Below, piece by piece: positions 886 to 61,000 of a stretch of 64,000 bases of DNA. The position numbers and the translations under genes were made by a program. Numbering within the stretch: the first letter of the stretch is position 1; every line of letters begins with the position of its first letter. The stretch covers positions 1-64,000 of the IMG/VR virus record IMGVR_UViG_3300021400_000949; one strand, 5' to 3'. The notes under the pieces are model-generated. The model made no database searches. It was not told the DNA's origin and worked only from the letters and a program-made list of their open reading frames with translations. This DNA is from a virus (taxonomy: Duplodnaviria > Caudoviricetes).

Positions 886-1108
886 TCTCCATCCTCGCAC
901 CACAGTTAGGACAATACTTATACGGCGCGTTCTGGTCCTTCCAAACTTCTTTTCCACGCAGTTCAATTCTATAAATCGGGCCCTTCTTCCCGCAATTTGA
1001 ACATACATTATCTAGCCATTTAGCATATTTAGGAAGTTCCATTTCTATCTTTGGACTTCTTTTTACTGCTTCTAAAAAAGAATCTATATCAATCCACTTC
1101 ATAATCAA
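875..1108 (-). CDS. Small Zn-ribbon phage protein
   Basis: AKW..CSNCG...YCPNCGARME motif. Confidence 0.7.
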   Translation of the reverse strand: MIMKWIDIDSFLEAVKRSPKIEMELPKYAKWLDNVCSNCGKKGPIYRIELRGKEVWKDQNAPYKYCPNCGARMENDV

Positions 1109-1466
1109 ACTCCTTTCTTACTTCATCACCATCAACTACAAATTCATAAGGATGCTCATGTCTATATACTATATATTCGGCGCGTTTATTAAGCCATTTT
1201 GTAATGGCATAAAGTCCTTCAGTAAATTTAAAGTGCGGTACTACATATTTATTACCCTTACCTATCAAGGTCGCACCGCCCATATCTCTACACATCCTTA
1301 AAAAGTTAGGATAGGATAAACCAGCAAGTCGCGCCAAAAAGACATCGTAGCTCCCTTTTGTGCCAGTTGGAAAAGGAAACTTTTCATGATTTATTGTAAT
1401 TATATAATCATTATTTGGAGATTCTTCCCAATAAACATATTTATTTACACTAATATCTCTGTCCAT
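1089..1466 (-). CDS. Hypothetical protein
   Basis: 125-aa ORF packed between co-oriented neighbours. Confidence 0.7.
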   Translation of the reverse strand: MDRDISVNKYVYWEESPNNDYIITINHEKFPFPTGTKGSYDVFLARLAGLSYPNFLRMCRDMGGATLIGKGNKYVVPHFKFTEGLYAITKWLNKRAEYIVYRHEHPYEFVVDGDEVRKEFDYEVD

Positions 1467-1744
1467 AACTCTTTAATCCCTTCTTCTTCTTCTTTGGTTA
1501 ACTCACATAGTTCTCCCCAATCATCCTTCCCTTTAAAGAATGAAAAGTCAATTGTTTCAGGTATCATATCCGCGGTAAATTCTTTTTTCTCGATTTTTTC
1601 TTGCGGCACATATCCTGGAATTATGTATTTTTTAACTGTACTTGGCGCGAACCCCGTTTCACGAGCGACCGCCGCATAAGTTTTATGTATTATATAAAGT
1701 TCATTAAAACGAATTATATCTTCTTGTGTAACTTTATTTGCCAT
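1445..1744 (-). CDS. HTH-containing protein
   Basis: TYAAVARETGFAPSTVKKY resembles a helix-turn-helix. Confidence 0.65.
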   Translation of the reverse strand: MANKVTQEDIIRFNELYIIHKTYAAVARETGFAPSTVKKYIIPGYVPQEKIEKKEFTADMIPETIDFSFFKGKDDWGELCELTKEEEEGIKELWTEILV

Positions 1745-2000
1745 TTTTCTTCATCCTTTCTTCATATACGGCGCAACCAGTACAATCAACTAATTTACAA
1801 TTCTTACAAGGTGTACCACTTGGGTCAACACCCTTATCATCCCATACATAGTGAACGCCGCCGAGTGGATCGGTTACTGTAATATGGAAAGATTGACGCT
1901 GATTATAAGTAAGACGCGGTAAAATTGAGTCAAAAATTGCCTGCTGGTCTGTTAATGTTAATCCTTCTATCGAGAAATCTACCTTAAATAAACTTTTCAT
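1734..2000 (-). CDS. Hypothetical protein with C-terminal Cys cluster
   Basis: 88 aa; GGAG RBS upstream; CKNCKLVDCTGC. Confidence 0.7.
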   Translation of the reverse strand: MKSLFKVDFSIEGLTLTDQQAIFDSILPRLTYNQRQSFHITVTDPLGGVHYVWDDKGVDPSGTPCKNCKLVDCTGCAVYEERMKKNGK

Positions 2001-2029
2001 ATATTCCTCTCCTTTTACTTTCTATAATT

Positions 2030-56894: not shown

Positions 56895-56911
56895 AAGCCC
56901 CTCCTTTTAAC

Positions 56912-58012
56912 TCAATAATAAAGATAATCATATTCAATATTCTTCATAATATTATTTCCAGTACTAAAATAAAAATAAGTTGAACTATTTGCAGGTATTT
57001 TAAAGAAATTGCCAGCAGTAATATATTTATTTAATAATCCTCCAGTAGGGTTGCCGTTTTCATCGGTTACTTCTACTAAATTAGCCTTACTATTAATTCT
57101 AAAATAAGTGCCTTCTGGAATATCTTTAAAAGTCATTTTATAATTTGTTAGTTCACCTACGTCATTTTGATAAAAATGAATCGTAAATGGACTCTAAGAA
57201 GTTGCCTAACAATATAACAAAAAATCCGTGTCTAAATCACCCTAATTTCTTACAAAAATAACATTATTTTCACCACTGCCTCTAGAATAAACTCTATCTA
57301 AGTATTCCCCGCTTCCAGATCTCGTTTCTCCTGTATGAAGCATCCCACTGGCGGCCGCCCATTCAAAAGGAACGCGTTTTCTTTCGTAATATTTTTGTCC
57401 TTCAACAAAGGCTTGACCTGTAAATTCTACGTATTCTTCATCTTCGTTTTTTATATAATAAGTTTTTCCATCTTGCTTTTCTGTATCAGAAGTTAAAAAA
57501 TATCTAAAAGTATCGTATCCATCATATTCACTTAAATATTTATTTACACTGCGCGCGAACGGATAATAGCATACAAACTAAATCGTACCTTCGCCCTTAT
57601 AAATCCTCTGCACACCTGCACTTCTTTCCATTGGTGCAACTTCATCAAAACATATATAATTAAAATTTGGTACTGCCGCAATCTTCGCACTATAAGCCTT
57701 ATACGGCGCCTCATCGAATATCAACTAATGAATTCCTTTATCTCCAAACCATTTTCTTAATTCTCTAAACTCACTTTCCGTAAGTTCATCTGTGGCAAAA
57801 GGGACTGAAAAAACTTTTTGCTGATAATAACTTCCGAAATAATAAGTCCCATCCCCGCCAGGAACGGCAACCGTAACATCGTTAAACGATGGGAGTAGCT
57901 CAGAATTGTATCTACTCCCATCACTTGTTCTAACGATTCCCATATCGGAAGAATGTTTACCATCAAAAGTAAATCCCATAAAGTCACCTTTAAAGTAAGC
58001 TCTTGATGCCAT
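56912..58012 (-). CDS. Distal tail (Dit-like) protein (366 aa, multiple TAG)
   Basis: GFTFDGKHSSDMGI...VPGGDGTYYFG...FDEAPYKAY; directly after the tape measure; ends DYLYY-TGA. Confidence 0.8.
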
Positions 58013-58029
58013 TCCTTTTCCTCCTAAAC

Positions 58030-61000
58030 TTAACGAATTAAGTTAATCGCATTTACGTTGCGGTAAGTTGCGTCTTTGTTAATTTCATTTTTAATCTTTC
58101 CAATTAACTTATCAACATCATAATCATTTGCTAACTGGTCTACTTTAATGTCGAAATTATAGTAGTTATCTCCACCATTTTGAAGTTTGTCGAGTGACCC
58201 CATATCGGAGAGAATATCTTTTAATTGGATAAAGTTTTCGGTATCGCGCGCATTTAATACGAGCTCTGGGTGGGATGCGGTTCCGTCGAGCCATGCGAGA
58301 CCTGTTTGAGTGCTTAAGCCGCCGGTTTTATACGTTTTATAAGAAGCATTAGCCCTATTCCATTGCGCTAATATTTGTCTAAAAATTTCTTTTTCTGAAG
58401 AAGAAGCATTTTTCCATGCATTATATTTATCTTGTCTCATTTTTCCTAAATACTCTTTAGCCTCTTTTTCGGCGGCTGAAGTAGAAGAATGTTTTGTACT
58501 ACCCGTCCATAAAGTATTTGGCCCATCTTTTATCTAAGCTCTATAATATTTTTTTGGTGCAGAAGTCTTGTTACCTGATCCACTATTACCACTATTACCA
58601 CTATTACCACCAGTATTACTACCTGATGTACTTGAAGCTTTTCCATCCAAAGCTTTCTATATTGAAGCTAAATAATCTTTTAGCCAAGCATTTGGATCGG
58701 TAGTGTCTTTAGCCTATTTATTACTATATACATATGCACCACTACCTTTATTAGCAGTAGCATCCCAATAAATATCATAAAGATTACCAGATTTATCAAT
58801 CCAACGTTGTAATGTATTATCAAACCAAACATCTGCTGTTTTATTTACATCGTGTTCATCTTGAACCGACATTGTATTATTAGAAGAAGTATGCTTAAGC
58901 TTCTCTTGGTCAACCTTAAAATTGCTCATACCTTCCATGGCAGCTTTATACTCATTTGCAAGTTTAGTCATCCAATCTTCACCCGCAAATTTTGTCATGG
59001 AAGTCCAGCCTTCATTATCTTGTAATAATTTCTTAACTTCTTCTGTTACTTCTCCAGCTGCAGCAGTTTCATTAATTAATCTTTCAGCCGTTGCATTAAA
59101 TCCACCACTCTAAACTGTCCAATCATGAATAGCTTGCATAATATCAATCTATTCCTAACGCTGCTATGAAGCCTTCTCGTTCTCGTCACTTAACTTCTGC
59201 ATTCCCTAATCAATTAACTAATCAGAATAATTCTACCTCGCATCGGCTAAATCTTGCTCAAGCTTCATAATCTCCATCTGGTTCGCGCCGGATGTGTCAC
59301 GACGTAAATAAGCAAGTCTTGCTTCCTTTGAAGCAATATCATCTTCTGTCTTAGTATTATCTCTTATCTAACGCTCAAGGTCTATCGACTCTTGCATACT
59401 AGATAAAACGCGGGAATTAGCTTCATTTATACTATCAAATTTTGCACTTAAATCATCTATTAATTTTTGGTCAGCATTTATTAAAGCATCAATAATTCTT
59501 TGTTCAAAACTAAGATACTCTTCTTTTCCTCTTTGGTTAATTTCCCAAATGGTATCTTCCATATCTTCAATGGTTGTTTGAGTATCTTCAAATTGTCCTT
59601 GCAACTCTTCCAAGCGGCCGACATATGCTTCAATTGCCTTGCCAAGTTCTTCATCTCTTACGGCTTCAATAGCGGCCCAATCAATTTGAATCGTTTGAGT
59701 ATCAAAGTTGTAGTTAGCATACTTTGTAACACCCATCTTTTCAAAGGTAGTTCTTTGGTCACCATTATCATAACGTTCATTAGCAAGATTTTCAATTTGC
59801 TCACGACGTCCAGCTTGGAGACGCTTTTGATATTCAACTTCTTGGCGAAGATTTGCAATCTCTTGCGCCGAATTTTTAAGCAATTCTGCGGCAGTGCGCT
59901 CTCTACGTTTAAGGATCCGGTCATAATCACGCTCTATTTTTTCACGAGTACGAAGGGCTTCGTTAATTTTTTCAGTTAGATTATAGTATTTGTCATATGG
60001 ATTCTTCCAATTATCTTGTTTTTTGGACGAACCACCGCCTCCACCGCCGCCTTTCTTGCCTTTACTTGCATTACCCTTCCCACCAGTAAGGTTCTTAGTA
60101 GAAATTCCACCACCGCCAGAACCAGTAGAAGTAAGAGTTTTTATGGATGGGGCCATTACATCTTCTGTCCAAGTAACAGGTACCATATCGGTAGAAGGTA
60201 TCATATCAGTTATATTGCCTTCGTCATCTCTTTTTATTGAATAAGATGTCTATGGATAATAACGAGTCTGTGTTATAGGTGTAGTATGCCCATCAAATTC
60301 AACATCATAACCTAATCTCTTAAAATACTCAGATACCTAATCAGCAGTCATGCCAGAAGCATTTATCATTTCTTGACAAGCAGCAATAAAATCATCTTGT
60401 CCAGTTAATTCAACTCCAGCTTCAAGCGTTGGTAATTCCCAATTTTCTAACTCATTAGCAAAATCATTGACTATATTTTGAGCTTCTGGATCTAAACCTA
60501 AATTTATTAAATAATCTTGTGCAGCCGCAACCTATAATTCTCCAAGAGCTTCGGTATCACCTTCTGCAGCCTTTTTAATATTTTCAATATTTTTAGCATT
60601 ATTCCAAAATTCGTCAGATAAATCTTCAGAAGCGTTAAGCATTTTGTTAACACTATCTCTTAAATCATTATAAGCTTTAGCATCATCTGAAGTAGTAGCT
60701 TTAATTAAACCAGAATCCTAATCAATTAAACCTACCCAATCATTATAGCTACCTATAATTTCATCTAAGCCTGCATTTAAATTCATATTGCTTAATGCAA
60801 CTTCGTATGCTGTAGCTTTATTATTCTATAAGTTCTAATTTATATTCTAAAGAGAAAGCGCATAAGCATCAAGCTCTTCTGTATCATACCCCGCACGTTG
60901 TGCTTCATTCTATGCACTATAAACTATGCTTTCTTCAGAACCGCCCCGAACTTCATTTTCCTAAGCAGTATATTTAGATGCCTATGCAAAAGCTTCGTTT

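Follow-up and report, generated by a model that had tools for sequence, protein, structure and literature searches.

The window analysed here comprises the first 64 kb (64,000 nucleotides) of a 79,879-bp linear virus record in IMG/VR (IMGVR_UViG_3300021400_000949; 33% GC, CheckV completeness 67%), which represents an AT-rich rumen siphovirus of the SPbeta type. Its DNA contains a large excess of the hexamer GGCGCG and of its reverse complement, CGCGCC. The phenomenon is real, operates at the level of the DNA and has a density like that of the highly iterated palindromes (HIPs) of cyanobacteria; it does not amount to a discrete motif that is conserved and functional. The excess belongs to G/C-only words that form a graded family around GCGC and CGCG, rather than to a single motif. 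We assign a probability of about one half to the view that a context-dependent bias in substitution or repair, inherited within a clade of phages, has left it as an equilibrium footprint, and that it does not represent functional sites.

An exact count gave 33 copies of GGCGCG and 33 of CGCGCC on the plus strand of the window. These 66 copies span positions 924..59289, on both strands and in all frames. Mononucleotide composition predicts 2.5 copies, corresponding to a 26-fold excess, and 100 dinucleotide-preserving shuffles of the window yielded 3.40 +/- 1.96 copies with a maximum of 9. The strong, ∼25-fold over-representation reported in the first-pass annotation was therefore reproduced by computation. 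Its hand count of 55–60 copies was low, and its example coordinates were accurate to within 0–2 nt (7841, 16144, 24104 and 56742 replace 7840, 16143, 24103 and 56740). The whole contig contains 82 copies of the two words, equivalent to 1,027 per Mb. The window has 117 G/C-only runs of at least 7 nt (∼1 per 550 bp), against ∼17 under a geometric model, and the contig has 148 (1,850 per Mb), 100 of which contain GCGC or CGCG.

The number of copies expected from Markov models climbs with the order of the model, from 11.2 (second order) through 32.5 (third) to 45.3 (fourth), indicating that GGCGCG derives most of its excess from GCG/CGC, GCGC, CGCG and GCGCG. Individually, GCGC is enriched 4.4-fold, CGCG 2.9-fold and GCGCG 10-fold; the hexamer adds just ∼1.5-fold beyond its sub-words, and with maximal-order models the ratio is only 1.5 for GGCGCG and about 1 for the palindrome GGCGCGCC. 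When all k-mers were ranked, the enriched ones constituted a class of words, namely GCGCGC, CGCGCC, CGCGCG, CGGCGC, GCCGCC, GGCGCGCC and GCGGCCGC. Among G/C-only 5-mers the ratio of observed to expected counts increased ∼1.5-fold per CG step and 1.8-fold per GC step, relative to GG/CC steps. CpG flanked by A or T was depleted (ACG, CGA and TCG, ∼0.6-fold) and GCG was enriched 1.7-fold. The probability of run extension rose from 0.33 to about 0.6 and was then near 0.5. The HIP1-like iterated motif that had been proposed from the sequence is thus borne out in density and in its composition of 100% GC, which resemble those of alternate HIPs, and is not borne out as a single iterated word. Two other sources of such a pattern were examined and rejected. 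Regional heterogeneity in GC content at third codon positions was discounted, as its autocorrelation lay mostly between adjacent codons (0.068 at lag 1, 0.03–0.04 beyond), and dinucleotide-repeat slippage was discounted, as alternating AT, AC and AG repeats were absent among the enriched hexamers.

Coding constraint was controlled for by a synonymous shuffle, performed gene by gene, in which every protein and the codon usage of each gene were kept; genes of the late arm were called with TAG read through. In the coding sequence of the contig GGCGCG and its reverse complement occurred 79 times against 11.4 expected (GGCGCG, 44 against 7.5, z = 14; CGCGCC, 35 against 3.9, z = 17), GCGC 262 times against 108, and G/C-only runs of at least 7 nt 142 times against 40.7, with z values of 12–20. 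By word, the enrichment over this shuffle was 10-fold for CGGCGC, 8.8-fold for CGCGCC, 6.8-fold for GCCGCC, 6.7-fold for GCGCGC, 6.6-fold for GCGCCG and 5.9-fold for GGCGCG. A shuffle of this kind had been named beforehand as the control that could overturn the observation, and because the excess persisted (79 against 11.4) it was not overturned. The excess acts on the DNA: it survives a protein-preserving shuffle, is strand-symmetric and is found in every frame. The alternative that it is a by-product of protein coding, through amino-acid composition, codon usage or a Gly-Ala/Ala-Arg dipeptide bias, accounts for a small part of it. The order of the amino acids contributes ∼1.8-fold (a codon permutation expects 6.3 copies, the synonymous shuffle 11.4), and GGC-GCG in frame 0 is the commonest single class (23 of the 79). 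However, the excess over a shuffle that preserves protein and codon usage (z = 14–17), the equality of antisense and sense copies, the use of all three frames and the range from 0- to 7.8-fold among relatives with orthologous proteins are not compatible with this explanation, which is refuted by the synonymous shuffle. The location of the sites on both strands and in different reading frames, as described in the first-pass annotation, was confirmed.

The choice of base at four-fold degenerate sites follows a cooperative context rule that was directly observed. The fraction of G/C at these sites was 0.11–0.17 with A/T on the 3′ side, 0.30 in the context SS|SW and 0.47 in the context SS|SS (S, G or C; W, A or T). 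The base chosen creates alternation or CpG: G was found in 28 of 47 GCNCG sites, C in 26 of 42 CGNGC sites, and in GGNGG C was found 45 times against 3 times for G.

A pattern of this kind could also be generated by selection for an iterated DNA signal whose density matters and whose position does not, with weak selection at each site acting against AT-biased mutation. Examples would be a HIP- or Chi-like word, a site for loading or recognition of a protein (gyrase, a winged helix-turn-helix (wHTH) protein or a nucleoid protein) or thermodynamic 'GC clamps'. We regard such a signal as possible but on present data improbable. The Chi cores of Firmicute AddAB enzymes are GCG-rich, which is in keeping with it, as is the ranking of the words, which tracks stacking stability. 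The enrichment is also large and genome-wide, and the density of 1,000–1,850 per Mb equals that of HIPs (PMC4390886). The internal structure of the family is less favourable. There is no single word, and a fourth-order Markov model accounts for 45 of the 66 copies. Logos drawn around GCGC, CGCG, GGCGCG and the run boundaries revealed no flank consensus beyond run extension, which rules out a longer extended motif, and no candidate reader was found. Spacing was irregular, from Poisson-like to clustered (coefficient of variation 1.1–1.5, never under the Poisson expectation), so that regular spacing or periodicity was also ruled out. The earlier suggestion of a wHTH or gyrase site finds no support, as no flank consensus for one was seen. 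The absence of strand polarity (33 against 33 copies) in a family that is quasi-palindromic argues against a Chi-like recombination site, also suggested; the ratio of sense to antisense words is accounted for by coding.

The behaviour of the words over short time scales was assessed in ∼25 near-identical strains of this phage (99.3–99.9% identity), which originate from sheep-rumen metagenomes; 44,167 positions were covered in at least five genomes. Two sets of single-nucleotide polymorphisms (SNPs) were used, 283 polarised by minor allele and 629 with outgroup-first polarisation, and the context-free null placed the same base changes at random positions. In 20 kb alone, 4 SNPs lay within islands where 5.1 were expected, numbers too small to be informative. 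SNPs that toggle an enriched word numbered 25 against 13.4 (synonymous) and 29 against 10.5 (all), ∼2-fold above the null irrespective of polarity, and most of them were exchanges between CpG and TpG/CpA. Losses of words were not depleted (13 against 11.0, 7 against 7.3 and 6 against 5.4), and gains exceeded the null (12 against 2.4, P = 8e-6; among singletons, 6 against 1.2). The islands are hypervariable among near-identical strains and mutate faster than average; the words are not protected. For the top 5-mers, losses among all SNPs were 16 against 8.4 expected, whereas selection for a signal predicts fewer than expected.

The rate of A/T-to-G/C change at four-fold sites increased five-fold with the number of flanking G/C bases (0.0033, 0.0061, 0.0109 and 0.0167 for one to four), whereas the rate of G/C-to-A/T change was flat at ∼0.04 whatever the flanks. 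The equilibrium G/C fractions implied by the SNPs (0.07, 0.13, 0.15 and 0.31) track those observed (0.11, 0.15, 0.23 and 0.44); the surplus of observed over implied G/C in the richest context, 0.44 against 0.31, speaks for selection of the words. CpG transitions occurred at 0.020 against 0.0069 per site, a 2.9-fold difference that is uncorrected for codon position.

The positions of the islands are not conserved between relatives. Four-fold sites matched for amino acid and for 5-nt context were compared with 20 enriched relatives, and the presence of G/C here barely predicted G/C in the relatives (Mantel–Haenszel odds ratio 1.13 overall, 1.25 in SS|SS). The closest distinct relative, L032 (77% nucleotide identity), shared 9 of the 22 motif sites and had 20 of the 30 runs of at least 7 nt at matching positions, and the odds ratio in SS|SS was 4.1, not above that in other contexts. 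The rate of identical 6-mers in L032 was 0.41 for the motif and 0.40 for all G/C-only 6-mers, against 0.27 overall. Conservation of motif positions at synonymous sites, on which the first-pass annotation had staked its proposal of selection on the DNA, was consequently not found (odds ratios of 1.1–1.25; 9 of 22 sites shared with L032). This distinguishes the phage islands from HIP1 sites, which are conserved between genomes (PMC5861425), and weighs against a selected signal.

The distribution of the excess was examined on a tree of the DnaE/YorL-type DNA polymerase (32806..36762, plus strand; PHP, DNA_pol3_alpha), which is encoded at 37–85% identity by 30 IMG/VR loci and by two contigs from metagenome-assembled genomes (MAGs). 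A 22-row clade (SH-like approximate likelihood ratio support 97) was enriched throughout, with GCGC plus CGCG at 2.1–5.9 times the level predicted from base composition, except for L007/L027, which lie inside the clade and have essentially no GCGC/CGCG. The corresponding values were 0.8–1.6 in the sister clade and ∼1 in the outgroup. Enrichment holds across a deep clade, at polymerase identities down to 54%. In relation to the synonymous shuffle, GGCGCG and its reverse complement were enriched 7.8-fold in the contig of this phage (labelled G000 among the genomes compared), 6.8-fold in G005, 4.7-fold in G011, 3.8-fold in G008, 1.9-fold in G017 of the sister clade and 0-fold in both G015 and SPbeta. 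The contrast between the enriched clade and the unenriched sister clade, outgroup and MAG contigs indicates that the trait is heritable and is a property of one SPbeta-like rumen phage clade.

Related lineages favour other words. G017 (loci L053–L061, 177,698 bp) has 442 copies of CCGCA/TGCGG, with 324 in coding sequence against 81 under the synonymous shuffle; the two orientations are present 237 and 205 times, do not switch along the genome and have no flank consensus. G015 and G008 enrich GCCGCA or GCCGC(A), and GCCGC is 2.2–2.7-fold enriched in five of six genomes and 1.5-fold in G005. G015 (loci L047–L052; 109,575 bp, complete, with direct terminal repeats) sits in an otherwise enriched clade and has purged palindromes: it contains 0 GATC, 13 GCGC, 3 CGCG, 17 GGCC and 0 GGCGCG, and words containing ACGT or CATG are likewise depleted. 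Retention of the excess across a deep clade, and words that differ by lineage (CCGCA in G017; GCCGCA in G015 and G008) in the manner of a switchable recognition specificity, both favour a selected signal; the lack of polarity of CCGCA in G017 (237 against 205) does not. A combined proposal is that the clade carries a heritable, context-dependent 'writer' of G/C islands, which might be a replisome or repair activity turning TpG/CpA into CpG beside G/C already present, or else a selected HIP- or Chi-like signal with a switched word specificity; this we consider rather doubtful. The proposal would take the GCGC-type words, GCCGCA and CCGCA as the words of sister lineages and the whole as a phage counterpart of cyanobacterial HIPs, an equivalence that we put forward only tentatively.

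Gene content was compared with the trait across six genomes, a small sample that is confounded by phylogeny. Only one family, represented by a 127-aa open reading frame (ORF) at 44245–44628 on the minus strand (phrog_1401), occurred in each of the four enriched genomes and in neither of the two non-enriched genomes. Its AlphaFold2 model has a mean predicted local distance difference test score of 91.7, yet Foldseek found no match in the PDB; the sole family that tracks the trait therefore lacks a recognisable fold, which gives little encouragement to a selected signal with a dedicated reader. A 371-aa ORF (36759–37871, plus strand, TAG read through) overlaps the stop codon of the polymerase. 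It was found in the enriched clade and in G015 and not in G017, and had no Pfam or PHROG match; an accessory role in the replisome would be consistent with its size and position. A link to TAG recoding was rejected, as the standard-code genomes G005 and G011 are enriched.

The window avoids GATC (126 against 340, both strands), GATATC (4 against 35), CTAG, CATG, TCGA and GAATTC. Such avoidance of palindromes is typical of restriction avoidance and suggests that the DNA is unmodified; the avoidance of GATC, GATATC, CTAG and CATG argues against blanket hypermodification. For GCGC and CGCG such avoidance was confined to the relative G015, whose 109.6 kb contain 13 and 3 copies respectively.

Word usage could also be imposed by the host, either because the phage mirrors the host signature or through orphan 5-methylcytosine (m5C) methyltransferases of the host acting together with Vsr-type repair, and the clade pattern would then mirror host range. 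Methyltransferases that form m5C classically target GCGC, CGCG and GCSGC, CpG transitions are raised 2.9-fold, the words differ by lineage, and a sublineage evidently under GCGC/CGCG restriction has none; Elhai's model in addition links alternate HIPs to methyltransferases (PMC4390886). A 33%-GC Clostridia MAG from the same habitat is enriched in relation to base composition (GCGC 2–4-fold, G/C-only runs of at least 7 nt 4–7-fold), but with proteins held fixed the enrichment is only 1.2–1.6-fold, compared with 2.6–7.8-fold in the phage. Both MAGs that hold phage relatives are unenriched, with ratios of ∼1 or lower under the synonymous shuffle (G001 and G002). In G001, labelled Methanobrevibacter sp. 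RGIG2413, there are 9 copies of GGCGCGCC in 3.1 Mb, five of which lie on one phage-like contig. The contigs of this phage type binned in this MAG include L032 and C147 (L074–L075), and another relative is in a Bacteroidales MAG. As the bins disagree (Methanobrevibacter and Bacteroidales) and are unenriched, the phage contigs are probably mis-binned and provide no guide to the host. A DNA search for the host in 399 Clostridia genomes gave only short, chance-level matches. Furthermore, words that would be products of deamination are not depleted, and repertoires of restriction-modification systems and methyltransferases usually turn over faster than a clade of this depth. We judge host imposition to be unlikely.

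A biased substitution input is the most economical reading of a rule that is cooperative, graded and strand-symmetric, and of words that turn over in a neutral-like manner, are hypervariable and show no reduction in losses. The bias would act on the supply of changes, by mutation or repair, and not on their fixation. According to this model, under strong AT pressure, A/T-to-G/C changes would arise or fix several times more often beside an existing G/C, mostly as transitions from TpG/CpA to CpG, while the decay of G/C to A/T would not be slowed. Short G/C-only islands would nucleate, grow to ∼7–10 nt, decay and reappear elsewhere, with alternating GC/CG steps preferred over GG/CC steps, and GGCGCG would be just one of the commonest words within them. 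Restriction pressure would then filter the words that a lineage retains, one sublineage having purged GCGC and CGCG. One candidate for the enzyme is the phage's own SPbeta-type replisome, in which the DnaE/YorL-type polymerase would be a candidate source of a heritable substitution bias. The second is a short-patch T:G mismatch correction tied to cytosine methylation in the host, as in Elhai's alternate-HIP model and with Dcm/Vsr of E. coli.

Several results do not fit a biased input comfortably. Since the unenriched sister clade also encodes an orthologous polymerase, the replisome by itself is not an obvious cause. The first-pass annotation had proposed that the words might mark methylation sites, but no match above cut-off to PF00145, PF01555 or PF02086, that is no C5, N4/N6 or Dam-type methyltransferase, was found in the contig (67% complete) or in 19 relatives, which include records that are 93% and 100% complete; Vsr (PF03852) was not found in the phage or in the same relatives. 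The T-containing neighbours of the words, which correction of this type would be expected to drain, are not depleted (GTGC/GCAC 235 against 246, TGCG/CGCA 318 against 260, CGTG/CACG 131 against 149). SNP counts are small and polarisation is weak, with minor-allele and outgroup calls agreeing in 104 cases and conflicting in 78. The 77%-identical relative was on this evidence rejected as a reliable outgroup, the division into gains and losses is uncertain, and the one robust result is that toggling SNPs are in excess. The equilibrium implied by the SNPs, 0.31, is below the observed 0.44, and a combination of CpG hypermutability with weak selection or biased conversion, of scaled strength ∼1–1.5, could fit the same unpolarised numbers. 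The total purge of GCGC and CGCG in G015 additionally demonstrates that selection can act on these words.

Comparable word excesses are known from other systems. In E. coli, very short patch (VSP) repair by Dcm and Vsr reportedly drives an excess of CCWGG, a result attributed to Bhagwat and McClelland in 1992 and to Merkl and colleagues in the same year. The phage pattern resembles that system in a strand-symmetric excess, in a bias that would arise from T:G correction, in requiring no function of the word and possibly in C-to-T and T-to-C flips at the word. It differs in that T-containing neighbours are not drained, the phages yielded no Vsr or m5C methyltransferase gene, and the excess is larger and involves many words. 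The alternate HIPs of cyanobacteria include GGCGCC in Calothrix PCC 7103 and GCsGC in Cyanothece PCC 7822 (Elhai, 2015; PMC4390886), and a neutral origin by biased repair has been proposed for them (PMC4390886). In common with these, the phage words are short, 100% G/C, present at ∼1,000–2,000 per Mb, located within genes in all frames, particular to a lineage and exchangeable for a different word in related ones. The phage, unlike these bacteria, has a graded family in place of one palindrome and no cognate methyltransferase in the element, and its positions are non-conserved and hypervariable. HIP1 itself, GCGATCGC, shares with the phage words a large excess that survives coding controls and the lack of any gene-level role found; its sites are conserved between genomes and periodically spaced, which has been interpreted as selection (Xu, Lawrence and Durand, 2018; PMC5861425), whereas the phage words are not conserved and are spaced in a Poisson-like to clustered manner. 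Chi-rich phages (Bobay et al., 2013; PMC3784561), among them lambdoid phages with abundant Chi (PMC12315714), similarly accumulate short GC-rich words at ∼1 per 0.5–1 kb, but Chi is a single word with an orientation that belongs to a known host enzyme, and the phage has many words without polarity.

The full palindrome GGCGCGCC accounts for seven of the sites in the window. It occurs within the run GCGGCGCGCC in a GT2 glycosyltransferase gene (14508..14515), in the DNA ligase gene (16144..16151), within CGGCGCGCCG in the gene for the DnaB-type helicase (29538..29545), within GCGGCGCGCCG in an NrdG-like activase gene (40648..40655), in a TAG-recoded late gene (50031..50038) and within CGGCGCGCC in another late gene (56742..56749). 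Among the longest G/C-only runs in the window is the 13-nt GGCGCGCCCGCGG at 19958..19970. A further 13-nt run, CGGCGGCCGCGCC, is located at 36974..36986, and a C>T SNP at 36983 abolishes its motif in two of seven strains. The 14-nt G/C run at 41680–41693 is contained in the T arm of a tRNA and lies outside the word phenomenon. This tRNA, an amber suppressor with the anticodon CUA (41637–41707, plus strand), was detected with Rfam RF00005 at 30.4 bits (gathering threshold 29) and was not called by ARAGORN.

No close relatives were found among isolated phages, the nearest polymerase being YorL of SPbeta (37%). The replication block is arranged in the order gyrase B/A, wHTH, YorF, Sak4, YorH, DnaB, primase-like, RecJ-like and DnaE/YorL polymerase, and is syntenic with yorF–yorL of SPbeta. 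The virion genes match the YonB, YonD, YonG, YomU and YomW families, and the tape measure is a 2,440-aa ORF. Late genes require TAG as a sense codon (1–13400 and 44200–64000, both on the minus strand, and onward to 79.9 kb of the contig); reading through TAG raises the coding density from 70% to 94%, and the two giant ORFs, of 2,216 and 2,440 aa, contain 45 and 62 in-frame TAG codons respectively. Recoding is patchy within the family: G000 and G008 are recoded, and G005, G011, G015 and G017 follow the standard code. Sak4, RecJ and RuvC make up a recombination set of the phage's own. A RuvC-like ORF with an HNH-like N-terminus is located at 43476–44207 on the plus strand. Homing-endonuclease-like ORFs are scattered through the early region on the same strand (16421–16813, 20142–20891, the N-terminus of the ORF at 43476–44207, and 17401–18408; Vsr/DUF559-fold, phrog_559/9084, and GIY-YIG). 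The Vsr/DUF559-fold ORFs at 16421–16813 and 20142–20891 were considered as mismatch endonucleases and rejected, as they match homing-endonuclease PHROGs (PMC3239194) and are present in non-enriched relatives.

Words that occur in excess are routinely interpreted as functional motifs, as with Chi, HIPs and uptake signals. In the present case a virus shows an excess that is strong (7- to 26-fold) and extends across a clade, and natural contrasts are at hand: one clade is enriched, its sister favours another word and one sublineage is purged. The availability of ∼25 near-identical strains makes the choice between neutral biased repair and selection, which is still open for HIPs, addressable with population data. 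If the excess is mutational, a phage lineage can carry a ∼5-fold neighbour-dependent substitution bias, and k-mer-based host prediction, motif discovery and inference from codon usage would be distorted for such phages. If the clade carries a writer or a switched signal, it could be studied through natural lineages that have gained, changed or purged their words. If the words are selected, they would point to a DNA-reading function common to AT-rich phages of the gut and rumen.

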